This document shows, one piece after another, positions 1,078-51,848 of a stretch of DNA of 64,000 nt. The position numbers and the translations under genes are program-made. Location: assembly GCA_049696015.1 (NCBI GenBank), contig JBAVTG010000216.1, positions 504 to 64,503 of the forward strand. The letters are read 5' to 3'. The DNA is from Rhizobiaceae bacterium (GTDB lineage: Bacteria; Pseudomonadota; Alphaproteobacteria; Rhizobiales; Rhizobiaceae). Positions within the stretch are counted from its first letter, which is position 1; every line of letters starts with the position of its first letter. The notes under the pieces are model-generated. The model was not told where the DNA came from. It searched no databases and was given only the letters and a program-made list of their open reading frames with translations.

Positions 1078-2376
1078 TCACCCCAGGGCCTCCAGCATCG
1101 GCATGACCGAAAACTTGCCCTCCTCGGCCTTGGCGGTCAGCGCCCGCAAATAGCCTCCGGCGGAGCGGATGGCGTCGGCGCGTTCGAGCATGCAGGCGAT
1201 GACGATTGCGGCGCGCTCGGGGCCGAAGGCGTCTTTGGCTTTCGTCCAGGCGTCCGGCGAGATCCCCAGCATCGGCCGCACCAGTTCGGCGGCGGTTTTC
1301 AGATCACCGTAAGTGGCCAACCCCTCGCGGACATAATCGCCAATCACCGGACATGCGCCCTTCACCTGGCTGAGCGGCGGTAATTGACTGCTTTCACCGC
1401 CCGCGGCGTCATCTGGTTTGCTTGCTGCACCCTTCCGCTCTGGCGCTGCCCTCCCCGCTTCATGCGCAGCCGCCTGCTTCAGCTTCTTTTCGAAGCGTCT
1501 GTCAAAATGGGATTCGGTATTTGAATTCTGAATGTGCCGCTCATTGTGATGGGCATTGGCGCTCATATTTTTGGATTCATCAGCCGCATCGTCATCAAGG
1601 TCCGCGTCATTCAGGCCCTCGAACCATGCCGCCTCGCACTCGGCCCGCAGGCGCGAAAGCGCCTCTTTGCGCTGCCCAAGGGCCTCCAGGCTCGCCGTGC
1701 GCGCCAGCCGCCGCGCCAGGGGGAGCAAGCGCATGGCAAACCCGTGCCAATCGCCTGCCCGCCCCGCCTCGCTGGCGGCATCGAGGATTTTGGCAATGTC
1801 TCGGATGTGGACGCTGATCTCGTCGCGCAGCCGCCGCGCCTTGGCCTCGTCGATCTTGACAGCCTCCTCCAGCGCGAAAATCTCCGCTGCCCGCAGCGCC
1901 AGCGGCCCAAGGTCAAAGCCGAACGCCGTTTCGATCGCGCCGCCTTCGCCGCGCCGCGCATAGCGCTTGCCGTTGGGGCTGTCGCGCCGCGCAATCAGCC
2001 CGGCTTGCACCAGCGCTGCGATATGCCGGCGCAATGTCGCATCGGCCATGCCTTGGGTGCGCCGGGAAAGCTCGGTGTTGGAGGGAAAGACGATCTGCTC
2101 TTCGTCGGCTTTGAGCGCCCTGCCCGGCAGCACGGAAATCAGCGCCGTCAGCACGGCAATCGTCCGGTCGGAAAGACCGAGCAGCGGCCGGGCGCTCGAC
2201 AGCGCCGTCATCAGCCGCCATTTGTCGGCCTCGCCCGCGTCATTGGTCGGCTCGCCTGCCCCGCTGCGGGCGGCCTCGCGCCGCTCCGATAGCTTTTTGG
2301 TCAGGGAAAAAGCGGCATAGCTCAAGGGTGCGCTGCCGAATGGCGACGCTGCAAACGATCCGGTCATGATGCTCAC
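1078..2376 (-). CDS. repC: Replication initiator RepC
   Basis: 432-aa ORF with typical RepC sequence (DKWRLMTALSSARPLLGLSDRTIAVLTALISVLPG..., IVFPSNTELSRRTQGMADATLRRHIAALVQAGLIARRDSPNGKRYARR). It is the last gene of a repA-repB-repC array on the minus strand. Confidence 0.9.
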   Translation of the reverse strand: MSIMTGSFAASPFGSAPLSYAAFSLTKKLSERREAARSGAGEPTNDAGEADKWRLMTALSSARPLLGLSDRTIAVLTALISVLPGRALKADEEQIVFPSNTELSRRTQGMADATLRRHIAALVQAGLIARRDSPNGKRYARRGEGGAIETAFGFDLGPLALRAAEIFALEEAVKIDEAKARRLRDEISVHIRDIAKILDAASEAGRAGDWHGFAMRLLPLARRLARTASLEALGQRKEALSRLRAECEAAWFEGLNDADLDDDAADESKNMSANAHHNERHIQNSNTESHFDRRFEKKLKQAAAHEAGRAAPERKGAASKPDDAAGGESSQLPPLSQVKGACPVIGDYVREGLATYGDLKTAAELVRPMLGISPDAWTKAKDAFGPERAAIVIACMLERADAIRSAGGYLRALTAKAEEGKFSVMPMLEALG

Positions 2377-2460
2377 CTGTCGTCAGGCAATAAAGATCCC
2401 CAGCCCGGTTTTTCAAAACCAAGCCTTGACAGGATTCGCCGAAAGTGATTCTCATCAATT

Positions 2461-2513
2461 GCTACATACAATGAGGCTCTCGGGGCGGAAACGTTTCGGG
2501 GGCCTTTGTTTTG
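2461..2513 (+). ncRNA. Candidate counter-transcribed RNA (ctRNA, inc-alpha type) in the repB-repC intergenic region
   Basis: A TTGACA -35-like hexamer sits at 2426..2431 on the plus strand. A strand-specific hairpin at 2475..2504 (GGCUCUCGGGGC / loop GGAAAC / GUUUCGGGGGCC, 12 bp including 5 G-U pairs) can only form in the plus-strand RNA. It is followed by UUUGUUUUG (2505..2513). The position and the roughly 50-nt size match the antisense regulator known for repABC operons. The 5' end is a guess. Confidence 0.45.
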
Positions 2514-2578
2514 TCTGCGAACATGTCCTTTCTGGTTGGGGTTGAACGGTCCGGCATACGCTAAGCGCCGGTAAATGC

Positions 2579-3523
2579 TTAGTTTTTCGCCTTGGCATAG
2601 TCCTTGGCCAGCCGGGCGAAATTCTCTTCAACGTATGCCGCAAACCCGGCGTCGGCCACATCAAAGCGCGTCCCCTGGCCTGATTTGGTGACGCTCATGG
2701 CGATGCCAGCCGCTTTCAAGTGCCGCTGTGCAGGTTTGGATTTCACCTTTTTCGCCAGCCGGTCGAACAGCATCTGGAACCGCTGGTCCGATTGCGCGGC
2801 GATGAAGGCGTCGCGCCCGGTTTCATCCTCGGCCTTGATGCGCGCGGCGTCGCTCTTGAGCATCTCGCCCAGCGCCATCCAGCGCGGCCGGCCGGCCTTT
2901 GGCGCAGGGCCGACGGCGCGGGCGATGGTCAGCGGGATCATCTCGCCGATCTGGATCATCCGCGTCATTTCCGCCTTGTGCAGCGACAGCGCCTCCTGCG
3001 CGGCGGCGCGGTCGACGCCGGCATCCAGAAGCGAGCGCACGAACATCGCCCTTTCAATGAACGACAGATTGCGCCGCTCGGCGTTTTCCTTGCCTTGCGC
3101 CAGCAAAAGCGCCGCATCGCTGAGCTGCCGCACGATCGCCTTGACTGTGGCGCCCAGCTCCAGCGCCGCCTTGATGCGCCGGTGGCCGTAGGCGGCCTCA
3201 TAGCGCCCGCTTGCGCCCGGCCGCACCAGCACCGGCACCTGCTGCCCGCCGCTGCGGATGCTTTCCACCAGCGCGGCAAAATCCTCGTCATTGTCCGCCC
3301 CGTTTGACAGCCGGTCGGCATAGGGGCTGGCATCGATCAGCCTGGGATCAATCTCCAAAATCCGCTCGCCCGCCTCGCGCGCCTCTTCGAGTTCCCGCTG
3401 CAGATTGCCCAGCGACAGGCCCATCGCCTTGACCGCGCCCGATGCGGCGCGCGCTGGCGCTGCCGGCGTTTCGGGCGCATCATGCTGGAAAAGGTTCTTC
3501 AGCTGGTCCTTGCGGCTTGTCAT
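2579..3523 (-). CDS. repB: Partition protein RepB (ParB family)
   Basis: ParB-type motifs are present (QQVPVLVRPGASGRYEAAYGHRRIKAALELG). I chose the internal start MTSRKDQLKNLF at complement(3521..3523) because GGAGA lies 7 nt upstream; the ORF track extends to 3550. Confidence 0.85.
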   Translation of the reverse strand: MTSRKDQLKNLFQHDAPETPAAPARAASGAVKAMGLSLGNLQRELEEAREAGERILEIDPRLIDASPYADRLSNGADNDEDFAALVESIRSGGQQVPVLVRPGASGRYEAAYGHRRIKAALELGATVKAIVRQLSDAALLLAQGKENAERRNLSFIERAMFVRSLLDAGVDRAAAQEALSLHKAEMTRMIQIGEMIPLTIARAVGPAPKAGRPRWMALGEMLKSDAARIKAEDETGRDAFIAAQSDQRFQMLFDRLAKKVKSKPAQRHLKAAGIAMSVTKSGQGTRFDVADAGFAAYVEENFARLAKDYAKAKN

Positions 3524-3596
3524 GGGCGAATCTCCGTGAGCGGCCAGCATAAGACGATTGCGGAGCGTGTGGATGAAACCGTGCTGAATGCGCCCC

Positions 3597-4829
3597 TCAT
3601 TGCGTTCTTCCCCATGCCTTCAAAACCAGTTGCTCAATCTCAAAGTTGACAGCTGTCAACGCCTCCATTGCCCGGTCATAAGTGACGCGCGAAAAGTTCT
3701 CGCGGCCCACTTCATAAAGCGTCTGCTTGGTCAGGCCGGCGTCTGATATCGCGGTGGATTTGACCATCGGCGCGGTCAGGACGCGCTCCCCGAACTGGTT
3801 GCGCAAAAACGCCGAGATCTGCGTTTGCGGCCCGTCATTGGGCTCGTAGCGGGTAATCAAATAGCGCAGGAAATCAAAATTGAGCTCGCCCCCGGCATTT
3901 TTCACCACCGCCAGCAAGTCGGATGTCATGAACAGAAACTGGCTCATCGAGGCAACGTCCAGCATTTGCGGATGCACGGTGACAATCACCGATGTGGCCG
4001 CGCACAGCGCGCCAAGCGTCAAAAACCCAAGCTGCGGCGGGCAGTCGATCACCACGATGTCGTAATTGGACTCGACGCTTTGCAGCGCGGCCTGCACGCG
4101 GGCAAAAAACATCTCGTCCGCCCTGCCCTGCCCGGTCTGCCGGGCGCTGAGGTGATGCGGCGTGGTGTGCTCGAATTCCTGCAGTTCCAGATTCCCCGGC
4201 ACCAGGTCGAGTCCGTCCATATAGGTGTGGCGGATGATGTCTTTGAGCGGGCGGCGCTCGCCATCATAGCGGATTGCGCCGTAAAGAGTGTCGTTGCCGG
4301 TCAGGTCGAGCTCCGGCTGGTAGCCGAACAGCGCGGACATCGACGCCTGCGGGTCCAGATCCACCGCCAGCACCCGATAGCCTTCCAGCGCCAGATGCTG
4401 CGCCAGATGCACCGAAGTCGTGGTCTTGCCCGAGCCGCCTTTGAAGTTGGTGACTGCAATGACCTGCAGGGCTTCCGTCAAATCGCGGTGCTTGATGTAG
4501 CTGCGCGCCTTGGCCGGATTCTGGTGCGCCAGGTGGCGGCGCAGTTCGTTGACCTGGGCCAATGTATAGGCCCGCCGCCCGCCCTGCGACACGTCCGGCT
4601 GCGGCCCCTCGCCTGACAGCGACAATTGCCGCAGATAGCCGTCCGACACGCCGATCAGCTTGGCCGCCTCGCCGGAGGAAAACGAGCGCAGCTGCTTTTG
4701 CGCGGTCGGAGGAAAGAACCGGTCGCGCATCGCCGATAGCTGGGCGGACAGGCCTTGCGCGTCAGCCGCGATCTGCGCGTCCGCCGATTGCCTCGTCTCA
4801 ATGCCCGCCTGCCGCAAAGCCTCGGCCAT
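3597..4829 (-). CDS. repA: Partition ATPase RepA (ParA family)
   Basis: Deviant Walker A (VTNFKGGSGKTTTSVHLA), DLDPQ, and the N-terminal LSAQLSAMRDRFFPP block typical of RepA. I chose the start MAEALRQ at complement(4827..4829), giving 410 aa with a GGGAA RBS-like upstream. The ORF is open up to 4946. Confidence 0.88.
   Translation of the reverse strand: MAEALRQAGIETRQSADAQIAADAQGLSAQLSAMRDRFFPPTAQKQLRSFSSGEAAKLIGVSDGYLRQLSLSGEGPQPDVSQGGRRAYTLAQVNELRRHLAHQNPAKARSYIKHRDLTEALQVIAVTNFKGGSGKTTTSVHLAQHLALEGYRVLAVDLDPQASMSALFGYQPELDLTGNDTLYGAIRYDGERRPLKDIIRHTYMDGLDLVPGNLELQEFEHTTPHHLSARQTGQGRADEMFFARVQAALQSVESNYDIVVIDCPPQLGFLTLGALCAATSVIVTVHPQMLDVASMSQFLFMTSDLLAVVKNAGGELNFDFLRYLITRYEPNDGPQTQISAFLRNQFGERVLTAPMVKSTAISDAGLTKQTLYEVGRENFSRVTYDRAMEALTAVNFEIEQLVLKAWGRTQ
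3645..3660. promoter_or_regulatory. parS-like centromere palindrome GTTGACAGCTGTCAAC (inside the 3' end of repA)
   Basis: Perfect 16-bp palindrome, identical to the copies at 6219 and 6311. It fits the repABC parS consensus GTTNNCNGCNGNNAAC. Confidence 0.75.
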
Positions 4830-5117
4830 GCCAAATTCCCTTGACTGCTTCAAAAGCCGGCCGGACATTCCGGCCGCCTGCATGCGATGCCTGATGCGCC
4901 GAAAGCGATACAATTCGGCGGACTTTTCTGGCATTTCGGCGCGCAATTCGGCGCACCCGTTTCAACCCGCATACGCCACGCTTACACTTGCCAGCCACAC
5001 ACTCACGATTCGGGGGCAGGGGTCAAACTACCCCCTTTCAGTTACGCCAATTGAGCGAAGCTACGCACCTGAACCGTAACCAAAATGCGGGCAACAAGTG
5101 AGTCTGTCAAGGAAAAG

Positions 5118-6876: not shown

Positions 6877-7911
6877 ATGGAATTGACCGGGGTCCAGCTG
6901 TCTGACCGTGAACCGGGCGCAGGAACCAGCCCGCAAGGCGGCTTGACCGGCGGCTTGTCCGGAACTGCGCCCGCGCAATTGCATGGCAATCAGAAACCCC
7001 GTCACCGCAAGGCCGCAGCCGGGCCGGACCTGGACGGCGCTGTGCTGACAATCGAGGTCTTTGGCGACCTGACAGTCGCAGCCGGGCCCGCAGGACGGCC
7101 GTTGACGATTCCGCCATCTGCGCGGGCATTGATGGGCTGCCTTGCCCTGCACGCGGTTCAACGTCCGTTGCGGCGCGAGGCATTGGCCGAGATGCTGTGG
7201 GCCGAGGCCCCGGCAGAGGCGTCGCGCGCGCGCCTGCGCACGGGACTGTGGCGGCTGCGCCAGATACTGGGCCTTCATGCGCCAGCCCTGTGCCAGGATG
7301 CGGACCGTGTCTGGCTCGACCGGACGCGGGTGGTCGTTTCAGCGCATGTCCGCTTTGCCCAAGGGATCGAACAGATTTGCGCCTTGCCGGTCGAAGCCAT
7401 GACAGCAGCGCAGTTTCAGGAGCTGGACGGGCTGATCGGCCTCTACTGCGGACCCCTGCTCGAAGGGCAGGATGACGATTGGGTGAAGCCCGAACGCGCC
7501 CGTTATGCCGAGCTCTATTCCCGCGCGCTGGAGCGGCAGATCGCCGCGTTTCGCGCGCAGGACAACCGCGAAGGCACCATCAGCGTTGCCCGGCGCCTGC
7601 TCGACCATGACCCATACCGCGAAGACATGCATGCGCTGCTCATTGAAATGTTTGCAAGCTCCGGCCAGCCGCAGCGCGCGCTGCGCCAGTTTCGGGCCTG
7701 CGAAAATGCGCTGGGCGACGACCTTGGCATAGACCCGTCGCGCGCCCGCGCCGCCTTGCGTGGCGCACTGGCCAATCCGGAAAGCCCCCCCGGCCTGTCC
7801 GAGGTGATATTGGCGCTGGATGATTCCATCCGCCATTTGGACCGGCAATTGGCCCTGGTCTGCCAGATCATCAAGGACCGGTATCCTGCTCCTGGAAAAT
7901 CACCCCGGTAA
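6877..7911 (+). CDS. SARP-family transcriptional regulator (winged-helix + BTAD)
   Basis: LTIEVFGDLTV...ARALMGCLALHAVQRPLRREALAEMLWAEAPAEASRARLRTGLWRLRQILG is an OmpR-like wHTH. It is followed by a BTAD signature (DPYREDMHALLIEMFASSGQPQRALRQFRACENALGDDLGIDPS). The start is uncertain: an in-frame GTG at 7042 would remove a low-complexity N-terminus. Confidence 0.75.
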   Translation: MELTGVQLSDREPGAGTSPQGGLTGGLSGTAPAQLHGNQKPRHRKAAAGPDLDGAVLTIEVFGDLTVAAGPAGRPLTIPPSARALMGCLALHAVQRPLRREALAEMLWAEAPAEASRARLRTGLWRLRQILGLHAPALCQDADRVWLDRTRVVVSAHVRFAQGIEQICALPVEAMTAAQFQELDGLIGLYCGPLLEGQDDDWVKPERARYAELYSRALERQIAAFRAQDNREGTISVARRLLDHDPYREDMHALLIEMFASSGQPQRALRQFRACENALGDDLGIDPSRARAALRGALANPESPPGLSEVILALDDSIRHLDRQLALVCQIIKDRYPAPGKSPR

Positions 7912-34765: not shown

Positions 34766-35769
34766 TGGGCGATCGCGAACCCGCGCCAAATCTGGCGGCA
34801 GAAGTGGCGGCGCTGCATAACCCTGATCTTGGCCAGACCATGATTTTTGATCCGGGCCTTGGATTTGACGAGATGACAGCCCGCCTTTCAGGGCTTGGCT
34901 TTCAATGCGAACCGGTTCCGGCAATGATGCCGTCCTTGTTGGAAGGCGAGCCTTCATCAGCCGCGTTTTCTTTTGGCGGCGCCAGGCCATTTCTCGACTA
35001 CCGCTTCAACCCGGTGGCGCGTCTTCGCGTGCTTGAAATGGCCACTGCCCCGCCCCTGATGCGTCAGCGGATCGCACGGGCCATGCCGCAATTGACCCTT
35101 GGCGCCTTACGCCAAAACCTTGGCGCGGCGCTGGACCGTGATGTTTTGCGTGCGATCTGGGGGCTGGTCGAACTTGAAGATGTCAGCGCGACCGAAGCGA
35201 TTGCTGCGCTTGCCGCACACCCTTCCGGCCCGGTGGCGCAAGAGGCTGTCCTGGCGGCGGAAAGGCTGCGCTCTGTCAATGCGGCGCGTGTAAAGGTATT
35301 GGGCGGGATGCGCATGGCGGCGCTTGCCGCACGGGATATGATCAGAGCGATTGCCACGGACTCTCAAGCGTTACTGGCCCGGCCCGAAGATGCGGCGGAG
35401 CTGTTTACCGAAGACATCGCCAATGTCATCGCCGCATCTTTGAAGGCCGTTCCGCTTGTCTTGCCTGACCGGTTGCCTGCAGCACCGGATGATGTGGCGG
35501 CCATCACGGCCGCACCCGCCGGTCTGCTTCGTTGGGATAATATGCTGAGCCGCCCGTTTCCAACCGGCTACCGCACAGTTGCAGGATGGATGAAGCCCGA
35601 CCGGGTCTGGGTGACATGGCGCGGCAGCGATTTGCGTGGCCAGTCAGGCCCTGACACGCTCTGGGACGGCCTCGTCTTTCTCGGCAACCGCTGGGTCTGG
35701 TTTCCGCGCCCATTCCGCCAAATAGCGGCGCATCTTGGCACCGCTTGGGCAGAGCCCCTTAGCCCATGA
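34762..35769 (+). CDS. Hypothetical protein between ATPase and giant gene
   Basis: ATGA overlaps at both ends (34762 and 35766). 335 aa, no motif recognised. Confidence 0.55.
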   Translation: MMGDREPAPNLAAEVAALHNPDLGQTMIFDPGLGFDEMTARLSGLGFQCEPVPAMMPSLLEGEPSSAAFSFGGARPFLDYRFNPVARLRVLEMATAPPLMRQRIARAMPQLTLGALRQNLGAALDRDVLRAIWGLVELEDVSATEAIAALAAHPSGPVAQEAVLAAERLRSVNAARVKVLGGMRMAALAARDMIRAIATDSQALLARPEDAAELFTEDIANVIAASLKAVPLVLPDRLPAAPDDVAAITAAPAGLLRWDNMLSRPFPTGYRTVAGWMKPDRVWVTWRGSDLRGQSGPDTLWDGLVFLGNRWVWFPRPFRQIAAHLGTAWAEPLSP

Positions 35770-45212: not shown

Positions 45213-46070
45213 CTACAGGCACGCCGCCAGCGGCGCTGACAGTGGCGTGCTGACCAGCCCGCTCATATGGACAAAGCCTTGATGCGTATCGCTCCCGTCA
45301 ACATCGACCGATGCCCATTTGGTGAGGTAACGCTTTTTGACAGGCGGGTTCGGACGGACGCAGTGCGCGCGCGTGCCGTAAGCAATGGCACGAATGTGCA
45401 GGGGTGTTCCGGGCGCAAGTTCGCGAACAATTGGCGCACCGCCATCAGGTCCACGCCGCAGGTTCAGCGGCTCACTGGCTTTTACCTTGGTTTTGAAGCC
45501 AAGTGATTTGCTTGTCGTCACCATTGTCTTGAGTGCCTCCAGATCAAAAAGCGGCCCCGGATCAAACTTGCCCATGATTGCAACATCGTGGTGCCCGACC
45601 ACATCGGCAATCGGGTAGCGTTCAATCAAGTCTTTCGCGATGGTGTGGCAGGCCTCGATTTGCGCTTTCGGATAGGTTTCCCATTGCTGCATGGACGCAT
45701 CATTTGGATTGTAAATCAGTTTGCCGGAGCTGTGCGGCGCGTTGCCATAGGCAAATCCTTTGTTCATCAGGCAGATGCCGACAGAGTCTTGACTCACGGA
45801 ACTGTCGAGCGTGATCCCTCCCTGTGCTTTCCAGTTGCTCAGACCCGGATGCGCGGCGGATTGGGTGAATGGGCGCGTCTGGAAGGCTTCGCCATCCTTT
45901 TCGATCAGGATGTGATAGCCAAGCTTGTTTTGGTTCAGCGCCGCAACGGCTTGCGCCACCGTATCGGTCACCGAATAGTGGATAACCAGCAGCTTTGGCG
46001 TCTGACTTTTGCCTACATGCAGCAGCGGCTTTTTGGCCAGACCGCTGATGAAATGATTGGTTATGCTCAC
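45213..46070 (-). CDS. N-acetylmuramoyl-L-alanine amidase (amidase_2 / PGRP fold) with C-terminal SH3b-like domain
   Basis: LLVIHYSVT..., HHDVAIMGKFDPGPLFD is the amidase_2 signature. The C-terminal NLRRGPDGGAPIVRELAPGTPLHIRAI...WASVDVDG...GFVHMSGL is SH3b-like. GTG start at complement(46068..46070) is preceded by GGAGAA; the track ORF extends to 46187. No signal peptide. Confidence 0.8.
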   Translation of the reverse strand: MSITNHFISGLAKKPLLHVGKSQTPKLLVIHYSVTDTVAQAVAALNQNKLGYHILIEKDGEAFQTRPFTQSAAHPGLSNWKAQGGITLDSSVSQDSVGICLMNKGFAYGNAPHSSGKLIYNPNDASMQQWETYPKAQIEACHTIAKDLIERYPIADVVGHHDVAIMGKFDPGPLFDLEALKTMVTTSKSLGFKTKVKASEPLNLRRGPDGGAPIVRELAPGTPLHIRAIAYGTRAHCVRPNPPVKKRYLTKWASVDVDGSDTHQGFVHMSGLVSTPLSAPLAACL

Positions 46071-46095
46071 GGAGTTCTCCTGTTGCAAACAGAGT

Positions 46096-47226
46096 TCAAA
46101 CTGACGGCGGGGCGCCATCGGGACGATCTGCAGGGCCACCCTTGTCGGGCGTGAAGTATTTGCGGATGCGGCTTGCGGCATGGGCATAGCCCGCCTTGAG
46201 GATCAGGTTCTGCTGCGCGCGTGTCATCTTTGACAGCCGCGTCGGCACTTCCTGCGCTGCCACATATTCCGCCTTGGTCAGCATTTTCGGCATGTCTTCA
46301 GGATGATTCAATCCTGTCGTCAGCCCCCACATCGCCCCGGTGCGCGCGCCCGAGCGATAGGCATCGGCAAGAATGCGCTCACGCAGGTTTTCCGACTGAT
46401 CCATCAAAATGTCGATGACCCTGAGCGATTGCTGCAGCCAGTCGCGGGCAGGGGTCTCATCATAGCCGAAGGGCTTTCCGGCATTGGAGACAAACACGGT
46501 GCGCAGCCGTTTCCAGACTGTCTCCGTGCCCATGTTGTCATAAACGCCGCCGTCGGTGAGAACAGCTTTTTGTGTGAAAGGGGCACGCGCCAGATGACCC
46601 TTGTCCGCAGCTGCGATGGTGCCGTCCGACAGGTCCACATCGGACGGCGACAGGAATGGCGGAAATGCCGCCGAGCAGGCGATGGCCCGCGACAGTTTCA
46701 GGTCAACGCCCTTGATGACACCGATGTGGTGGTCAGCGATATAATCCGGCCGGAAGCGCATGACAGCGCCGGTCATCAGGTTTGTCGCATTGAACACGAA
46801 CAGCGGCTTGGTCGGCAGGCTTGCCAGTTTGACATTCTTGGCAATGTGCTTGTCATAACTTTTGGCCGCCATGTCAGCGGCCGTCACAAGCGGCAAGATG
46901 CCGACCAGCGCCGAACCGACGTCAATGGAATCCTCCGATTGGGCAATCAGCGGTTTCAGAAAAAGGTCCTTCAGGTTTGTGGCGACGCCTTTGGCATCAA
47001 ACGTCAGCTTGGGCCAGGCCACGGCCAGCGCCGCAGCCGTCATCGAACCGCCCGAAACGCTCGACACGCGCTTGAGCGGCTTGATCAGGCCAAGCTCGTT
47101 CATCCGGAAAATGGCACCGGCATGAAACAACATCGCCCGATAGCCGCCGCCGGAGATGCAAAGACCAGTGCCGTCCTCCAGCTTGTCGCCGTCTATTGCC
47201 GATAGTTTCGGTTTGTCCACGGGCAT
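46096..47226 (-). CDS. Patatin-like phospholipase
   Basis: Oxyanion motif ISGGGYRAMLFHAG, nucleophile elbow SVSGGS (GxSxG-like) and catalytic Asp motif LTDGGVYDNMG. No signal peptide. Confidence 0.85.
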   Translation of the reverse strand: MPVDKPKLSAIDGDKLEDGTGLCISGGGYRAMLFHAGAIFRMNELGLIKPLKRVSSVSGGSMTAAALAVAWPKLTFDAKGVATNLKDLFLKPLIAQSEDSIDVGSALVGILPLVTAADMAAKSYDKHIAKNVKLASLPTKPLFVFNATNLMTGAVMRFRPDYIADHHIGVIKGVDLKLSRAIACSAAFPPFLSPSDVDLSDGTIAAADKGHLARAPFTQKAVLTDGGVYDNMGTETVWKRLRTVFVSNAGKPFGYDETPARDWLQQSLRVIDILMDQSENLRERILADAYRSGARTGAMWGLTTGLNHPEDMPKMLTKAEYVAAQEVPTRLSKMTRAQQNLILKAGYAHAASRIRKYFTPDKGGPADRPDGAPPSV

Positions 47227-47237
47227 GGCGTCCTCCT

Positions 47238-48488
47238 TCAGATTGTTGGGGATAGTTGATAGATCAGGGCATGTTCATTTTTCACCGCCAGCCGGTTTTC
47301 AGCGCCGCGGAATTCGAAATTGACGTTCTCTGCAACGCCCGGCAGCGTCTTCAAATGCGCGATTGCCGCGCTGAGGGTTTTGACTTTCTTGGGGCCGTCA
47401 ACAAATGACGGCAGCGTGCCGTCCAGCGGCACATAGTTCATGTCCCCGTTGGTAAACGCCATCGTGAACTTGCGCCCCTTGGCGGCTTCTCCCGCAACGA
47501 TTTCCAGCACTTCCGGGTCCGGGTTCTGGTCTTTGCCATTGGCGCAAAACACATAAATGTCGGCGGTTACGCCCGCGATGAACTTTTTCTGCACGTTGGC
47601 CTTTGAGCCATGGTGCGGCACTTTCAGAATATCGACATGGAATGGCTTGTTCTTTGTCTTCAACCCCTTGGCTTCAAGCGAGCGAAGGACAAAGTCGCCG
47701 CGCTGATCGCCAGTCAGCAGGATGCGCCGCTTCTCCCATTCAATCAGCATGGTGATCGATGACAGGTTCAACACGGAATTGTCTTCCGAAAATTCCTTGA
47801 TGGCCGGCACGCCCGAGGCTGTGAGCGGAGTGCCAGGCGCAACGAGTTTGCTTTTCTTGGCCCATTCTTTCTTGAGGTTTTCCAGCTCTTCCTTGCCAGG
47901 ATTGAGCACGACGATGTTCGCAGGTCCAAAGCTAGCCGCCTCATGCCCTGCCGCAATCAGATTCCCGCGATCTTCTGTGCCTTTGTTGACGCTTGTATTT
48001 CCCGCACTGGCAAAAACCGAGAGATTATCGCCGTCGGCAATGCTAAGGCGCTCCAACTCATTGACCGTGGCCGCGTCGATATCGACTCCTTGCACAACGC
48101 GCGAAAACGAATTGTGCCAAAGCCTTGGCGCTCTGATCTGTTCGCCGCCGTCGGGCAATGTGCCGTTGCCTGTCCAGCCGGTGAAGAGCCGGACAACCCC
48201 GTCAATATGATCGTCGTGAACATGGGTGCAGACAACCAGATCCAGATCCAGCTGCGGGTCGCCAGCGGTGATGTCTTCGTCGGTTGATTTGGCGTCCCGC
48301 TCCGCCTTGATTTCCAGAAGGCGCGGAATGATCCGTGTCTTTAAAGGACTGTAAGAGCCGCCATTGTGGCTGCCGGTCGAGTCCGGCCCCGCGTCGATCA
48401 GCATGACCCGCTCAAAACCCATGTCACCCATATAGCGGACGACGATAGCGTCGCCATGACCAGCGTCGATGGCTTCAAATGTGATCAT
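47238..48488 (-). CDS. Metallo-beta-lactamase-fold hydrolase (ComEC/Rec2-type MBL domain)
   Basis: IDAGHGDAIVV, LIDAGP, VCTHVHDDHIDG (HxHxDH), LLTGD and KVPHHGS are the full set of ComEC-type MBL motifs. No TM segments and no signal peptide. Confidence 0.8.
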   Translation of the reverse strand: MITFEAIDAGHGDAIVVRYMGDMGFERVMLIDAGPDSTGSHNGGSYSPLKTRIIPRLLEIKAERDAKSTDEDITAGDPQLDLDLVVCTHVHDDHIDGVVRLFTGWTGNGTLPDGGEQIRAPRLWHNSFSRVVQGVDIDAATVNELERLSIADGDNLSVFASAGNTSVNKGTEDRGNLIAAGHEAASFGPANIVVLNPGKEELENLKKEWAKKSKLVAPGTPLTASGVPAIKEFSEDNSVLNLSSITMLIEWEKRRILLTGDQRGDFVLRSLEAKGLKTKNKPFHVDILKVPHHGSKANVQKKFIAGVTADIYVFCANGKDQNPDPEVLEIVAGEAAKGRKFTMAFTNGDMNYVPLDGTLPSFVDGPKKVKTLSAAIAHLKTLPGVAENVNFEFRGAENRLAVKNEHALIYQLSPTI

Positions 48489-48500
48489 GCCGTCCTCCCT

Positions 48501-50786
48501 TCAAACCGACTGCAGCGCCCGCAGCGCGTCCACCAGGCCTGCGCCCTGAAAGTGCCGCTCGCGCCCCAGATCCGTCGCTGTGTTCATCAGGATTTGCTTG
48601 ATCCTCTGCGGCTCGCCTATCAGCTCCGGGTAGCGGCCCATCAACAAAGCGCATACGCCCGAGACATGGGGCGCGGCCATCGAAGTTCCGTCCATGATAA
48701 GCATCTTCTCGCCCGGAATGGCCGAGCGTATCTTTTCGCCCGGTGCGACGATATCCGGCTTCATCCGCCCGTCACCGGTCGGCCCGCGGCTGGAAAAATA
48801 GCTGACGCCATAAGTGTGCGGCTCACTGTGGTGCGTCGCCCCGACCGTTATCACCTCTTGGGCATTGCCGGGATCGGTAATGGTCATTCCGCGATAGCCG
48901 ACGCCGAGCTTGGCCTGTTTATGCTCTTTGTCAAAGCCGGAATTGCCAGCAGCGGCGACAACCACCGTGCCATTCCACACCAGCCGGTCGCAGGCATCGC
49001 AAACCGGCGTTCGCCCGCAGGCATGGCTATCCACTTCAAATGGGATCGCCAGCGACAGGTTGATACCATGAATGGCAGGGCGCATCGGATCGCGGTTCAG
49101 CCATGCCACATAGTCAAGCGCCGCCAGAACGGTGAATTCATCGCCGCCGTCAACAGCAGTCGGGCCGTAACGCTTCTCTTGCCCCTCCTTGATTTCGGCG
49201 CGCGCCGTGTCGCCGTTTCCAAAAACACGCAGATCAAAGATTTTGATGTCGGGGCAAACGCCTTCAAATGGATCACTGTCGCCGATCACGCCGTTTCTCA
49301 GTTCGCGCCCTGCAAGGATGCCCGCCACATGCGTGCCGTGCGGATCGGAAGGCACTGGCGCAGTCAGGGGGTCCATGCGGATCAACCCCTCCAGAAGCGA
49401 CCAGTTGAGCTGCCGTCCGGTGATGTTTTCATCACGGATCGATTTGAGCGAGCGCAAAAGCGCCATCCGCACCGGTCCTCGTTTTTCCAAGTCGGTCGAG
49501 TTACCGGTGATCCGATCGATAATAATGTCGATTTGGCTCGCATTTTCGGCCAGCAAATCCTGCAGGATCGTGAAGTCCAGTGTTGCCACAACACGCGTCT
49601 TTGGAGCGGCCGGCGGCTCCGACATATCAAAGACAGCGGCTTCTGCTGCGTTGTTGTCCGGATCCGCCGGCTTTGGCGCTTCCAGGAATACACTGTGCCT
49701 GGCATCGATACCGGTGTCGATAACCGCCCACGCCAGGTGCGATGTCTTGATGCCAAAAAGCTTCTTGGCGGCATCGGCCTTTACCGTAATGGCTGATTGG
49801 TTGGCCCGGCCCGAAACTTTGGGCGGTCTTCCTGGCGCCGCCTGTTTCAAGGTTGGGCGATTGAGTTGGATCGACCAGATTGCGATTTCATCCGACAACC
49901 CTTCGACCCCTGCATCTCGTTCATCATCGTCGGGCGGCAAGTTGCGGCTCTTGTCTTTGATCAGTTCCCTGTATTTCTGCCAGAAGGGCTCGAGCACTTT
50001 GAGTTTGATGCGCGCTGCCGGTGCGTCTCGGCCCAATCTGACACGTTCGGGAAACAATTCCCGCTCGTCGTTCGTCAGTTCCGATTCAGCTGAATGGACT
50101 GGTGCGAGTACATCGAAAAACTTGTCAAAATCCTCGTAATCGATTTCCTCTTCTGTCAGCAGGCCCTGTGTAAGCGCTGAAAGCGCTGCAAACCGGAAGA
50201 ACTCGGTGTCATCCAGACTGACCATCGCTGACAGGACTGTCGCGCCCTTGTCGACTTGATCTTCCAGGTCTTTTTCCAGGAGGTCCTTATTGGAATAGGT
50301 TTGCTTCTTCCACCAGGCTGTCAGCGGCAGGAGGTAGTCCATCATCTCTTCAAATGTGACATCAATGGCCACATTGCGGGTCGTTGCCGCAATGCGGAAT
50401 TTGCCCAGGTCTGCCTGATCACGCTCCCGCTGTTTGTCAGCCTCCAGCGTCGTGCCCCGTATCTCGCGCCTGCGGCCAAGGATGATCTGTCTGATCTTCT
50501 CGGCCAATTGTCCCGCGTGCCCCGCCGGACGCCCGTCGGGGCTCATCGTCTGCTTTGGGGTGAGGATGAGCGGCAGCCTGTACTTCTTGGCAATTCCGGT
50601 ATTCTTCGACGGGTTGGACAGCCGCCAGCGGGCGAGCTTTAGAAACCAAACCCATACATCCGGACGTATCGGTGAATCCTGCGTGAACCGGCGCAGGCCA
50701 AAAGTCTCAAACACCAGACTCTGGATGAGAGAATCGGGCAGTTCCACGGGTTTTGGCTTTTCGGCCCGGTCTGATTGCTTCGCCAA
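48501..50786 (-). CDS. Subtilisin-like S8 serine protease with unknown roughly 350-aa N-terminal domain
   Basis: Catalytic triad motifs AVIDTGIDARH (Asp), HGTHVAGILAG (His) and GTSMAAPHVSGVCALL (Ser). The N-terminal half matches nothing I recognise. No signal peptide. Confidence 0.85.
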   Translation of the reverse strand: MAKQSDRAEKPKPVELPDSLIQSLVFETFGLRRFTQDSPIRPDVWVWFLKLARWRLSNPSKNTGIAKKYRLPLILTPKQTMSPDGRPAGHAGQLAEKIRQIILGRRREIRGTTLEADKQRERDQADLGKFRIAATTRNVAIDVTFEEMMDYLLPLTAWWKKQTYSNKDLLEKDLEDQVDKGATVLSAMVSLDDTEFFRFAALSALTQGLLTEEEIDYEDFDKFFDVLAPVHSAESELTNDERELFPERVRLGRDAPAARIKLKVLEPFWQKYRELIKDKSRNLPPDDDERDAGVEGLSDEIAIWSIQLNRPTLKQAAPGRPPKVSGRANQSAITVKADAAKKLFGIKTSHLAWAVIDTGIDARHSVFLEAPKPADPDNNAAEAAVFDMSEPPAAPKTRVVATLDFTILQDLLAENASQIDIIIDRITGNSTDLEKRGPVRMALLRSLKSIRDENITGRQLNWSLLEGLIRMDPLTAPVPSDPHGTHVAGILAGRELRNGVIGDSDPFEGVCPDIKIFDLRVFGNGDTARAEIKEGQEKRYGPTAVDGGDEFTVLAALDYVAWLNRDPMRPAIHGINLSLAIPFEVDSHACGRTPVCDACDRLVWNGTVVVAAAGNSGFDKEHKQAKLGVGYRGMTITDPGNAQEVITVGATHHSEPHTYGVSYFSSRGPTGDGRMKPDIVAPGEKIRSAIPGEKMLIMDGTSMAAPHVSGVCALLMGRYPELIGEPQRIKQILMNTATDLGRERHFQGAGLVDALRALQSV

Positions 50787-51287
50787 TTCAAGTCCCTCGC
50801 ATAGTTGCCGTCATTCTAAACGGTCTGCGCCGATGGTGGACAAAACTGCTCCAGCCATCGTTGCGCAGCCTCTTTGAGTCAGATGCGCCGGCTCAGAGCT
50901 CGCGGGCTTCTTATCTGAATTCTGAACGCGGCAGCGAACCATCGAGCGCATAGGCGTCAGCAGGCCGCGTAGCGCCGCAATTGCGCTAGCTGCATTCAAT
51001 ATCCTGCAGGGGGCCGTTCCGAACATGGCCATCACTCTTGGTCAACAGCAGCGATCTTTGTTGCTTGCCTGCCTTGAAGCACAACAACGGCGGCATTTTT
51101 TCGGACCTCGTTCACGCTACCGTAACGTCAGGTTGCGCGCAAGATGGGAACAGCCGTCCAATGAGATTGACGAAATTCAACGCCTATGCCCGCGATGACG
51201 ATTCAGGCAGTAAACACTGCGCGCAGTGCCAGCGCTCCGGCAGTGCGGCCATGCTTGTGGCAACCACGAATTCCAGCTCTGTTTTGA

Positions 51288-51659
51288 TCGGCCGTCCGCC
51301 GCTTGTGGCGCGGTGAGGAAGTTCAGTTTGCGCAAGGCGAAGCGATGCTTGGCGTCCGCACGTTGCCACGCCCGGTGCAGCCTGAGTTACCTTTCTGGCT
51401 GGCAACGACAGGCCGCGATGACTCATTTGCCGCGGCGGGCGATATGGGCGCTCATGTTCTGACCCATCTGCTTGGCCAGGACATGGCGGATTTGACGCTG
51501 AAAATCGGCCTCTGCCGTGCAGTTCGCCTTCGCGCCGGCTATGCAGGCAGGGGCAAGGTAACGCTGATGGTGCATACTTTTTTCGCGCGAGACAGACAGG
51601 CGGCACTCGCCGATGCGCTGACGCCGCTCAAACTTATCTTGCCGCTAGGCTTGATCTGA
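51288..51659 (+). pseudogene. Remnant of a luciferase-like (MupA/Atu3671-type) FMN-dependent monooxygenase
   Basis: AVRRLWRGEEVQF...VRTLPRPVQPELPFWLATTGRDDSFAAAGDMGAHVLTHLLGQDMADLTLKIGLCRAV...GKVTLMVHTFFA matches the middle of this family as I remember it. An in-frame TGA lies immediately upstream (51285..51287). There is no matching N-terminal third, and the frame stops early at 51659. Confidence 0.5.
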
Positions 51660-51848
51660 ACCGCGCTGCAGCCTGCGGGCCAAAAGCGGGCAAACGCATC
51701 TCCGCCACTGCCAGAAATGCCATGCGCATTTCCTTCCATGCAATAACTCATTGTTATCGCTGAAAAGTCGCACTTCAATATAGAACGCACCCCCGCTACA
51801 TCTTCCAATGCGATAATCCGCATTATGGAACGAACTTGTTCTGATGTC

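Follow-up and report, generated by a model that had tools for sequence, protein, structure and literature searches.

A subtilase-MBL operon convergent on an eCIS locus as a tentative candidate for protease-licensed cell suicide

The four-gene operon described here is, we tentatively propose, a cassette for protease-licensed cell suicide and autolysis that would confer immunity of the abortive-infection type, a reading to which we give somewhat less than an even chance. It lies in the window (the whole stretch of Rhizobiaceae DNA that was analysed, 64,000 nucleotides long), and its parts are as follows.

48501 to 50786, minus strand: S8 gene, 761 aa with a TTG start; serine protease of the subtilisin family, proposed to sense the signal and activate the cassette.
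49797 to 50786, minus strand: S8 N-terminal domain, ~330 aa, mostly helical; putative sensor or regulatory domain.
47238 to 48488, minus strand: MBL gene, 416 aa; ComEC-type hydrolase, proposed latent ("gated") DNase.
47790 to 47837, minus strand: MBL loop, residues 218-233 (PGTPLTASGVPAIKEF); candidate gating loop and cleavage site.
46096 to 47226, minus strand: patatin gene, 376 aa; patatin-like phospholipase, proposed membrane-disrupting effector.
45213 to 46070, minus strand: amidase gene, 285 aa; Amidase_2 (N-acetylmuramoyl-L-alanine amidase) with a conserved SH3-like C-terminal region, proposed murein-degrading effector.
50787 to 51848: stretch of 1,062 nt upstream of S8; presumed to hold the operon's promoter or regulatory elements.

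A first-pass annotation had described a tight minus-strand operon with gaps of 12, 11 and 25 nt between the S8, MBL, patatin and amidase genes, and these spacings were confirmed because the amidase start is at 46070, not at 46187, where the longest amidase ORF begins and overlaps the patatin gene; four 285-aa orthologues beginning MSITN identify the GTG at 46070 as the true start. The S8 gene is also called at 761 aa in an independent assembly. By motif check and family alignments the catalytic motifs of S8, MBL and patatin are intact, as had been claimed, and the reported lack of export signals held in a crude hydropathy test (not SignalP), which gave no hydrophobic stretch at the N-terminus of any of the four; their maximal 19-residue Kyte-Doolittle means range from 1.09 to 1.68, and no peak is N-terminal. 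The block had further been called AT-rich, which is true of overall composition (0.56-0.60 GC for operon genes versus 0.63-0.66 for the CIS genes) but not of GC3, which is similar (0.65-0.72 versus 0.66-0.72), and the lower-GC stretch, at ~44-53 kb, is wider than the operon alone. Between 50787 and 51848 there are only short low-quality ORFs, none convincing, and no match to an Rfam family; a consensus promoter scan upstream of S8 was uninformative, and tblastn found no trace there of the gene (367-385 aa) that stands before S8 in three related loci, L086, L087 and L094.

The four genes were at first read as a set of degradative effectors. Comparison across genomes shows that they are not on an equal footing: S8 and MBL form a two-gene core, which ~36 genomes have while lacking the other two. 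At these ~36 GTDB species-representative loci fetched, S8 and MBL are adjacent on the same strand, usually <40 nt apart, in Proteobacteria, Acidobacteriota, Actinomycetota, Verrucomicrobiota, Planctomycetota and others. Paired S8/MBL identities by locus (95/92, 67/70, 66/68, 60/65, 51/50, 50/45 and 49/50%) drop together, which is consistent with co-evolution of the two proteins. The third gene varies, being a patatin directly upstream of S8 in 8 loci (8 distant genomes, 38-42% identity), a Tle1-like lipase (2e-77) in 3, Vps62-like in 3 and DUF4062 in 1, and this swapping resembles the exchange of defence effectors. Some lineages carry a wall hydrolase with the module (Amidase_2, DUF2272 or a PG_binding_1/lysozyme-like protein), also where no eCIS is nearby: a PG_binding_1 tail-lysozyme-like protein with patatin and a nearby integrase in L036, DUF2272 plus SH3 in L089, and a PG-binding protein in L141. 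On annotated plasmids the S8-MBL pair lies beside FRG, SIR2, NERD-kinase and DNA-methyltransferase genes. The family was not found in IMG/VR viral contigs, and no link to any phage was found. Nearer to the window, the predicted synteny of all four genes was found, the order S8-MBL-patatin-Amidase_2 being kept in L084, L085, L086/L094 and L087; this exact order, extended by a fifth gene, DUF2272, is seen again in four distinct loci, with identities of 51-77%, so that the window operon, which has no DUF2272 gene, is an incomplete copy by comparison with its relatives.

The first-pass annotation gave no named defence system of this composition, but the core is covered by a class already in print, that of the gated MBL nucleases, in their subtilase-associated clade, which appears, in phylogeny only, in fig. 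S2 of Tuck et al. (Science 2025, PMC12799240) and as "Clade 3" in Evans et al. (bioRxiv 2025, PMC12642450). In that class HamM, Avs1a, VcMBL and CanC have been shown experimentally to be pro-DNases activated by a neighbouring protease, a conversion published for trypsin- and caspase-associated members only; the modules are HamM with protease-HamA (Hachiman), Avs1a/Avs1b (AVAST), VcMBL-Avs2 and CanABC ("Canu") (PMC12799240, PMC12642450). Like these modules, the window has a ComEC-like MBL nuclease with large insertions directly beside a protease, in a conserved pair that appears to co-diverge, and its MBL protein matches the same library models (LmuA-MBL, RTasMBL and Avs1a; PADLOC E-values 5e-45 for LmuA, 7e-27 and 3e-26). 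It differs in that the protease is a subtilase, whereas those of the characterised modules are trypsin-like or caspase-like; in that the protease has, in place of a STAND, HamA, LmuA or RT partner, a novel helical domain of 330 aa fused to it; and in that a patatin lipase and one murein hydrolase (two in relatives) are added to the core. Its gene order, protease then nuclease, is that of Canu, unlike the trypsin systems.

Several features of the MBL protein suggest how such gating could work. The motifs reported for it were verified as H89-V-H-D-D-H94 and HHGS292-295, and TGD259-261 was located as well; H89xHxDH94, D261 and H292-H293 are invariant in 37 homologues. The Pfam Lactamase_B match is marginal (22.0 bits versus a cut-off of 22.7), and the NCBIfam Avs1a match (2e-33) falls below cut-off. 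The AlphaFold model is confident (pLDDT 89, pTM 0.90), and in a fold search of the PDB it comes closest to 9ic4, the beta-lactamase-like domain of ComEC (266 aa, E 4e-12, TM 0.74 on target). The protein is ~150 residues longer than this domain, and in the profile alignment much of the excess follows the HxHxDH motif, ahead of the C-terminal half. Loop 218-233 is the sole segment with pLDDT <50 in the model, with weaker segments at residues 35-47 and 131-150, and it is highly variable across the family alignment. In the NCBIfam Avs1a register (query 231-349 = profile 242-360), it probably sits at the second cleaved loop of Avs1a/HamM (I234 / I218); the window MBL has one clearly disordered loop, as against two in the published gated nucleases. 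By analogy with those nucleases, S8 would not act as a bulk protease but would cleave the MBL protein and so switch on a dormant DNase.

The protease itself is a conventional subtilase over its C-terminal half, with Pfam Peptidase_S8 at residues 354-750 (1e-40), a match to the PADLOC "subtilase" model (4e-42) and an AlphaFold model (pTM 0.81) in which the catalytic half resembles PDB subtilisins. The triad noted earlier was located at D357/H486/S702, in columns invariant in 25 homologues. The first-pass annotation had also described a roughly 350-aa N-terminal region of no known family, and residues 1-350 indeed have no Pfam match and no PDB sequence match, while the model is helical there, with pLDDT about 80-90 over residues 10-290. 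A profile of this domain found 838 clusters (50% identity) among 1.84 billion proteins; in all of the 150 matches listed it begins at the protein N-terminus, and the full-length proteins among them are mostly 600-800 aa, the size of the S8-fusion architecture. Invariant residues include R33, D37, D43, W45, P77, F145, P154, W158 and N309-R310. We regard this 330-aa domain as a candidate new sensor of infection or stress.

The two remaining proteins have no PADLOC match and would supply membrane and wall damage. The patatin (Pfam Patatin, 2e-16) has GGGYR26-30, S-V-S57-G-G in place of GxSxG and D225-G-G, with orthologues at 63-77% identity in the same position in L084-L087, L094, L095 and L143. 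For the amidase, the Amidase_2 part of the earlier assignment is firm (3e-19), but the SH3b part is weak, with SH3_4 (1.5e-3) and SH3_3 (9.6e-3) below the Pfam cut-offs. It matches PHROG lysis amidase/endolysin families (1e-15 to 6e-10), its orthologues in L084-L087 and L094 are 71-77% identical, and where its relatives occur outside the cassette, they either form one protein with a lysozyme or lie next to one (L093, L140).

Several established systems share one of these components and differ from the operon in others. Avs1a of AVAST type 1 is homologous to the window MBL, but the MBL scores 115.9 bits against a cut-off of 420 for NF041809, S8 has no Avs1b-type match, and there is no STAND NTPase in or beside the operon. 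The window MBL is likewise homologous to the PADLOC LmuA-MBL model of the Lamassu subtype with an MBL effector, yet no LmuB or LmuC model matches in the operon and no SMC-like LmuB adjoins it, the flanking genes being PoNi_C and SDR. CBASS CapV and the alpha/beta-hydrolase zymogens (Evans 2025) resemble the patatin as lipase-type intracellular death effectors under an upstream sensor; CapV itself was rejected on the missing PADLOC match and the absence of a cyclase or nucleotide sensor in the operon. The amidase, a signal-less murein hydrolase of an endolysin family, recalls phage-type lysis cassettes, but a holin-endolysin-spanin arrangement is contradicted by the lack of ORFs in the 11-25-nt gaps and of transmembrane segments in all four proteins.

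The programmed-death or lysis role suggested at first pass fits this evidence, and one could envision the following sequence, which goes beyond the gene content, conserved synteny, fold, motifs and genomic associations established here. The S8 N-terminal domain would sense an intracellular signal, most likely phage infection or another lethal stress, and the activated protease would cut the putative inhibitory insertions of the MBL proenzyme to release a DNase, as in its trypsin- and caspase-associated relatives. The co-transcribed patatin phospholipase would attack the inner membrane, and the breach would let the signal-less amidase reach the wall and lyse the cell, with DUF2272 presumably acting as a second wall enzyme alongside it in relatives. 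To our knowledge, murein hydrolases are not usual abortive-infection effectors. If the proposal is right, the principle by which a protease unlocks a dormant killer would extend to a third protease class, the subtilases, and one protease would stand beside several killing enzymes whose targets are DNA, the membrane and the cell wall; bacteria would then have a counterpart of the executioner cascades of eukaryotic cell death.

The same biochemistry could instead serve the neighbouring eCIS, whose relevant features are these.

8172 to 44294, plus strand: eCIS operon with a giant terminal ORF, the putative payload.
44291 to 45100, plus strand: PoNi_C immunity gene (PoNi_C 3e-21), terminating the eCIS payload region.

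The eCIS is recognised by Pvc16_N, Phage_sheath_1, CIS_tube, Phage_GPD, Phage_base_V, Baseplate_J, Tail_P2_I and AAA domains; the PoNi_C gene overlaps the stop of the 2842-aa ORF at 35766-44294 and is convergent with the amidase gene, 112 nt away. A BTAD activator lies at 6877-7911. It is possible, although we judge it improbable on balance, that the cassette is the release module of this eCIS, firing in the particle-bearing sub-population: the DNA would be degraded, the patatin would open the inner membrane, and the amidase (with DUF2272 in relatives) would dissolve the wall, so that the cassette would do without a holin what holin-endolysin cassettes do for tailocins and Afp. Particles of eCIS leave by lysis of the producer, and lysis cassettes are carried by R-pyocins (holin-endolysin-spanin) and by Afp (an endopeptidase-holin-lysozyme cassette upstream) (PMC12961389). 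The window resembles both in having a signal-less murein hydrolase beside a contractile particle locus that needs lysis, and differs in needing a phospholipase to breach the membrane and in carrying a protease-nuclease pair as well. Apart from the amidase, the larger window ORFs scanned gave no recognisable murein hydrolase, and a CHAP/PG_binding_1 protein stands at the same cassette-eCIS junction in L095.

The genomic association speaks for release. In the window, and likewise in L084/L096, L085, L086/L094, L095 and probably L087, the cassette is convergent with an eCIS at its payload end, and in the close sub-clade, where patatin follows MBL, every copy with readable context abuts an eCIS. 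Two eCIS lineages are represented (L096, for example, has Tail_P2_I and a Baseplate_J homologue upstream of the AAA ATPase), with baseplate proteins 26-29% and AAA domains 44-52% identical between them as against 66-77% for the cassette; the cassette, being more alike than the eCIS, was therefore exchanged between eCIS islands or recruited to them more recently. On the S8 side no two genomes share a flank (his operon, transglutaminase/ATP-grasp, NMO/Lhr and, in the window, SDR), so the cassette travels with the eCIS. A view with no functional link does not predict a cassette beside two divergent eCIS lineages, and this position makes it a testable candidate for the exit of non-tailocin eCIS particles, a step that is poorly defined for most systems and limits their use as delivery tools.

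However, the proposed tracking of the cassette with CIS loci, although upheld in its own sub-clade, is broken in two places: L143 has S8-MBL-patatin alone between housekeeping genes, with no eCIS within 10 kb, and Pararhizobium capsulatum has an orthologous eCIS (AAA 75% identical) with no cassette. In L082 an S8-MBL pair 95% identical to that of the window lies in a different context, and tblastn found eCIS genes within 10 kb at 0 of the ~36 distant S8-MBL loci. Five relatives share one eCIS type, which may reflect a single inherited association, leaving effectively two independent cases, and a DNase has no obvious use in freeing particles. The ends of phage-like islands, moreover, commonly gather unrelated defence genes. 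We prefer, only narrowly, to place the operon in abortive infection and to see its position at the payload end as linkage to the mobile, variable end of an island.

A further possibility, which we consider doubtful, is that an immune-type switch of subtilase and pro-nuclease has been co-opted by eCIS islands as a dedicated, holin-independent lysis system for particle release, in which a phospholipase would replace the holin, signal-less murein hydrolases would have been added, and the switch would time the altruistic lysis of the producer.

It is quite improbable that the eCIS carries the four proteins as additional cargo, as toxins against the DNA, membrane and wall of an injected bacterium. 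Distal eCIS genes are often toxins, the peptidoglycan hydrolase toxin EAT10 is known, and Tle1-like lipases accompany S8-MBL elsewhere. An amidase, a lipase and a DNase together are also reminiscent of the trio of antibacterial effectors that is classic for type VI secretion. The payload idea put forward at first pass nevertheless gained little support: the cassette genes are on the strand opposite the eCIS operon, and the proteins have no DUF4157, no N-terminal disordered packaging leader and structured domains from the N-terminus (the MBL model has a beta-strand from residue 2, and in patatin and amidase no more than 20-30 residues precede the first catalytic motif). The 11-25-nt gaps hold no immunity genes, and many genomes have S8-MBL, or the triplet with patatin, without an injection system in the vicinity.

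Finally, it is very improbable that chance has brought together in one transcript enzymes with ordinary metabolic roles or exported enzymes (a recycling amidase like AmpD, a secreted protease, a lipase): a weak AmpD match of the amidase (8e-15, 54.7 bits versus a cut-off of 143) and generic database labels for the homologues (AprX or beta-lactamase-superfamily hydrolase) would favour it, but order and tight spacing are kept across genomes with unrelated flanks, export signals are absent, the MBL protein is far closer to models of defence effectors than to any metabolic family, and the amidase is nearest to phage lysis families and lysozyme fusions.

Consistent with the first-pass annotation, ORF, Pfam and alignment analyses identified a tight minus-strand operon with intergenic spacing of 12, 11 and 25 nt, whose products retain intact catalytic motifs at positions that form invariant alignment columns:

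48501-50786, minus strand: S8 protease, 761 aa
47238-48488, minus strand: metallo-beta-lactamase (MBL)-fold protein, 416 aa
46096-47226, minus strand: patatin, 376 aa
45213-46070, minus strand: Amidase_2 protein, 285 aa from its true start, a GTG at 46070

The amidase start is backed by four orthologues, each exactly 285 aa. In Pfam searches, the Peptidase_S8 match (1e-40) was confined to residues 354-750 of the S8 protein, the MBL protein gave a marginal Lactamase_B match, the patatin gene product matched Patatin (2e-16), and the amidase matched Amidase_2 (3e-19), with sub-threshold SH3 matches. A simple hydropathy scan found no N-terminal hydrophobic segment or membrane-grade helix in the four proteins, bearing out the claim that they lack signal peptides and TM segments. 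The block had also been described as AT-rich, and total GC is indeed lower in the cassette genes (0.56-0.60) than in the adjoining locus (0.63-0.66); however, because GC3 is about equal and the lower-GC stretch extends from ~44 to 53 kb of the window, this is poor evidence for import, and recent arrival of the operon as foreign DNA is unproven. Promoter and terminator scans did no better than on shuffled sequence, and an Rfam search of the window found no family.

Although the first-pass annotation linked the set to no named defence system, the first two genes correspond to a recognised protease-nuclease switch, as indicated by PADLOC matches and two 2025 studies. The MBL protein matched the PADLOC models for LmuA (5e-45), RTasMBL and Avs1a, and the S8 protein matched the PADLOC 'subtilase' model (4e-42). 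According to these studies, HamM, Avs1a, VcMBL and CanC are inactive until a neighbouring protease cuts two inhibitory loops, after which they degrade DNA and abort infection (PMC12799240, PMC12642450). A third MBL nuclease clade, beside S8/subtilase proteases, is depicted in fig. S2 of Tuck 2025 (PMC12799240) and as 'Clade 3' of Evans 2025 (PMC12642450); in the portions of the two studies on which we draw, the subtilase clade appears in phylogenies only, and the experiments described concern trypsin- and caspase-associated members (PMC12799240, PMC12642450). AlphaFold modelled the window MBL protein with confidence (pLDDT 89), and the best PDB match of the model was a 266-aa ComEC nuclease domain (E 4e-12). 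The ~150 residues that the protein has in excess of this domain fall for the most part between HxHxDH and its C-terminal half. The sole disordered segment of the model, loop 218-233, lies in the Avs1a HMM register at the position of the second cleaved loop of Avs1a and HamM; whereas published members of the gated class have two cleaved loops, the window protein shows one that is clearly disordered. Because it combines the ComEC fold and motifs with an adjoining S8 gene as conserved protease partner, we place the pair among the protease-activated MBL pro-nucleases, with gating and activation predicted by analogy. Assignment to AVAST type 1 or Lamassu was rejected because the defining partners are absent and scores fall below cut-off; the NCBIfam Avs1a match (2e-33) is well short of the one set for equivalogs.

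The S8 family alignment was scanned against one genome per GTDB species, returning 80 loci, against which the four window proteins were run by tblastn. An MBL homologue directly follows S8 in about 36 of the 80, found in Alphaproteobacteria, Gammaproteobacteria, Acidobacteriota, Actinomycetota, Verrucomicrobiota, Planctomycetota, Myxococcota and others, and among these ~36 no neighbour other than MBL is conserved. A patatin 38-42% identical to the window's lies immediately upstream of S8 in eight loci; downstream of the pair are found a Tle1-like (DUF2235) phospholipase (2e-77; three loci), a Vps62-like protein (three loci), a DUF4062 protein (one locus) and, in locus L036, a PG_binding_1 protein with a full-length match to a phage 'tail lysozyme' family (1e-31). 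L036 also has a patatin upstream of S8 and so brings together the four functional classes, although its wall enzyme is not homologous and its genes are ordered differently; an integrase adjoins, and no injection system lies nearby. By annotation, a Paroceanicella plasmid carries a patatin, a hypothetical gene, S8 and MBL with a peptidoglycan-binding protein alongside, and on Rhizobium phaseoli and R. leguminosarum plasmids FRG, S8 and MBL sit amid SIR2, NERD-kinase and methyltransferase genes; one of these plasmids also has DUF2272 close by. The set is thus modular and not a fixed group of four equals: a universal two-gene core has a varying neighbour, often a lipase, together with wall hydrolases that are particular to certain lineages. 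On R. phaseoli plasmid pRphaR630c (locus L139, 1-1985), a 'phage tail tip lysozyme' gene comes directly after a second S8 peptidase gene; an FRG-S8-MBL-DUF3616-SIR2-NERD-kinase cluster is ~7 kb away. One MBL homologue (P0230, 699 aa, 35% identical to the window MBL) joins Peptidase_C14 (caspase) and Lactamase_B in one protein and is a protease-nuclease fusion instead of a gene pair.

Looking up the exact sequences of the closest S8 and MBL homologues led to loci L084, L085, L086/L094 and L087, all with S8-MBL-patatin-Amidase_2 in the window's order; the four families therefore do co-occur elsewhere, and the objection that they might not be syntenic in other genomes fails. Compared with the window, S8 is 51-67% identical, MBL 50-70%, and patatin and amidase both 71-77%. 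All of these relatives have a fifth co-directional gene, DUF2272, which the window lacks. A further gene of 367-385 aa lies 39-49 nt upstream of S8 in some of these relatives (L086 1404-2561, L087 6849-7952, L094 6588-7745); its copies are 55-99% identical to each other, have no Pfam match, are absent from the window and L084, and may represent a sixth, optional component. Tblastn found no trace in the window of a remnant of either gene. The other close relatives have S8-MBL-patatin only (L095), S8-MBL-patatin alone between ammonium-transport and thioesterase genes (L143, S8 49%), S8-MBL-DUF2272-SH3 (L089), and S8-MBL only (L082). The last of these (GCA_031380065.1, JANNFR010000123.1, 4118-8883) is the closest relative of the window S8-MBL pair (95%/92% identity); it has neither patatin nor amidase, and downstream of MBL come a 97-aa ORF and an ISL3 transposase, which suggests truncation by IS insertion.

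The cassette faces a PVC/Afp-type extracellular contractile injection system (eCIS) with Pvc16_N, sheath, tube, gpD, gpV, Baseplate_J, Tail_P2_I and AAA ATPase genes, which terminates in a 2842-aa ORF and then a PoNi_C immunity gene convergent on the amidase. In this region (35766-45100, plus strand), the 2842-aa ORF overlaps the start of the PoNi_C gene (3e-21), and neither the whole ORF nor its C-terminal 299 aa alone gave a Pfam match; the arrangement points to a giant payload of the eCIS that would end in a PoNe-type DNase and be paired with its immunity protein. In L084, L085, L094 and L095, the cassette converges on genes for an AAA/WHD ATPase, a ~225-aa protein and a ~1,240-aa protein with a weak nuclease match; L086 and L087 end early, in a homologue of L094's 221-aa gene between the cassette and the ATPase set. 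Extended, the L084 locus proved to be an eCIS too, since Tail_P2_I and a Baseplate_J homologue lie upstream of the ATPase. Its terminal toxin and immunity genes also differ from the window's, its ATPase is 44-52% identical (AAA domain only), and its baseplate proteins are only 26-29% identical where the cassette proteins are 66-77% identical, so the cassette is common to two deeply diverged eCIS lineages. Because the S8-side flank differs in every genome compared, the cassette travels with eCIS islands, an association for which chance is a poor explanation.

The best-supported account of these observed associations is a protease-licensed self-destruction cassette, for which we infer each biochemical step: S8 would sense a signal and cleave the MBL protein, unlocking its DNase, patatin would open the inner membrane, and the signal-less amidase would then gain the murein. 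The first-pass annotation, confirmed in its observation and supported in part in its interpretation, had judged the nature of the cassette and the CIS link rightly, while missing the core switch and the modularity. As to purpose, two fit, and we lean tentatively towards abortive infection, for which the family-wide distribution, defence-island neighbours and effector swapping argue.

Alternatively, one could envision timed lysis of the producer for eCIS release, which we regard as possible if somewhat more doubtful. Particles of this kind need lysis (PMC12961389), the sub-clade is consistently eCIS-adjacent, and no other recognisable lysin was found among the larger ORFs scanned. However, L143 and L082, which carry the module without an eCIS, speak against a strict functional tie, and tblastn with proteins of both eCIS types found no eCIS genes within 10 kb of the distant S8-MBL loci but one generic AAA match, a search that may miss structural proteins of great divergence. 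Moreover, the association may have been inherited just once by all five relatives, and Pararhizobium capsulatum has an orthologous eCIS without the cassette. In the latter (L097, strain DSM 1112, JAUSVF010000002.1, 16476-22049; AAA 75% identical to that of L095), the eCIS ends in the same ~1,248-aa toxin, followed by a P450 gene, two ~540-aa genes and a transposase, so the eCIS/cassette junction behaves as a variable hotspot. That the proteins are eCIS cargo is improbable: they are encoded opposite to the eCIS, have neither a leader nor DUF4157, lack immunity genes, and occur in genomes without any injection system nearby. Least probable is that they are housekeeping enzymes, which conserved, context-independent synteny contradicts.

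The subtilase branch of MBL pro-nucleases was already noted, though not studied further in the portions cited, by both earlier studies (PMC12799240, PMC12642450). New here are the family-specific N-terminal domain of S8, the recurrent coupling to lipase and murein hydrolases that would make this a multi-target death cassette, and a conserved location at the payload end in each of two divergent eCIS lineages.

The first 330 residues of the S8 protein are modelled by AlphaFold as a helical domain. When the entire S8 model was compared with the PDB by Foldseek, matches were confined to the subtilisin half, and a profile of the domain found nothing credible in PDB sequences or Pfam (best E 0.21 and 0.066). 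The profile retrieved 838 clusters at 50% identity; among the 150 matches listed, the match is always N-terminal, and full-length proteins are mostly 600-800 aa, the many shorter ones probably being fragments. The domain thus looks specific to this subtilase family and, by analogy with sensor fusions in other protease clades, is likely a sensor. The S8 family does not look phage-borne, as its alignment matched only generic subtilases in IMG/VR viral contigs (<=37% identity over the catalytic region).

The amidase belongs to phage-lysis families and is elsewhere fused or adjacent to lysozymes. A metagenome scan with its alignment returned only three loci, of which two were too short for use and the third encodes a lysozyme fusion that is not part of a cassette. 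Its closest annotated relative, on a Bosea vestrisii plasmid (L140, NZ_CP126308.1, 11098-14988), lies in an operon encoding an SH3 protein, an M23 peptidase, a hypothetical protein, the amidase and a lysozyme, with two caspase-family genes and several TIR-domain genes flanking it; here too, murein hydrolases adjoin conflict-system proteases.

The window opens with repC (RP-C 1e-57), repB (RepB/ParB) and repA (ParA-type ATPase) at 1078-4946, minus strand, and therefore belongs to a Hyphomicrobiales repABC plasmid or chromid, making the eCIS and cassette plasmid-borne. PLSDB held no close relative of the window (75% nucleotide identity or less), and within the window we found no tRNA genes and, as potential island boundaries, only short repeats at chance level. 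An intergenic element of 70-110 nt directly downstream of an SDR stop, at ~51730-51840, is conserved: plasmids of Brucella/Ochrobactrum, Aminobacter, Phyllobacterium and Mesorhizobium carry unannotated stretches between genes that match it at 74-86% identity. Its predicted folding is slightly better than that of shuffled sequences (z -2.7), and it may represent a terminator or small repeat element.
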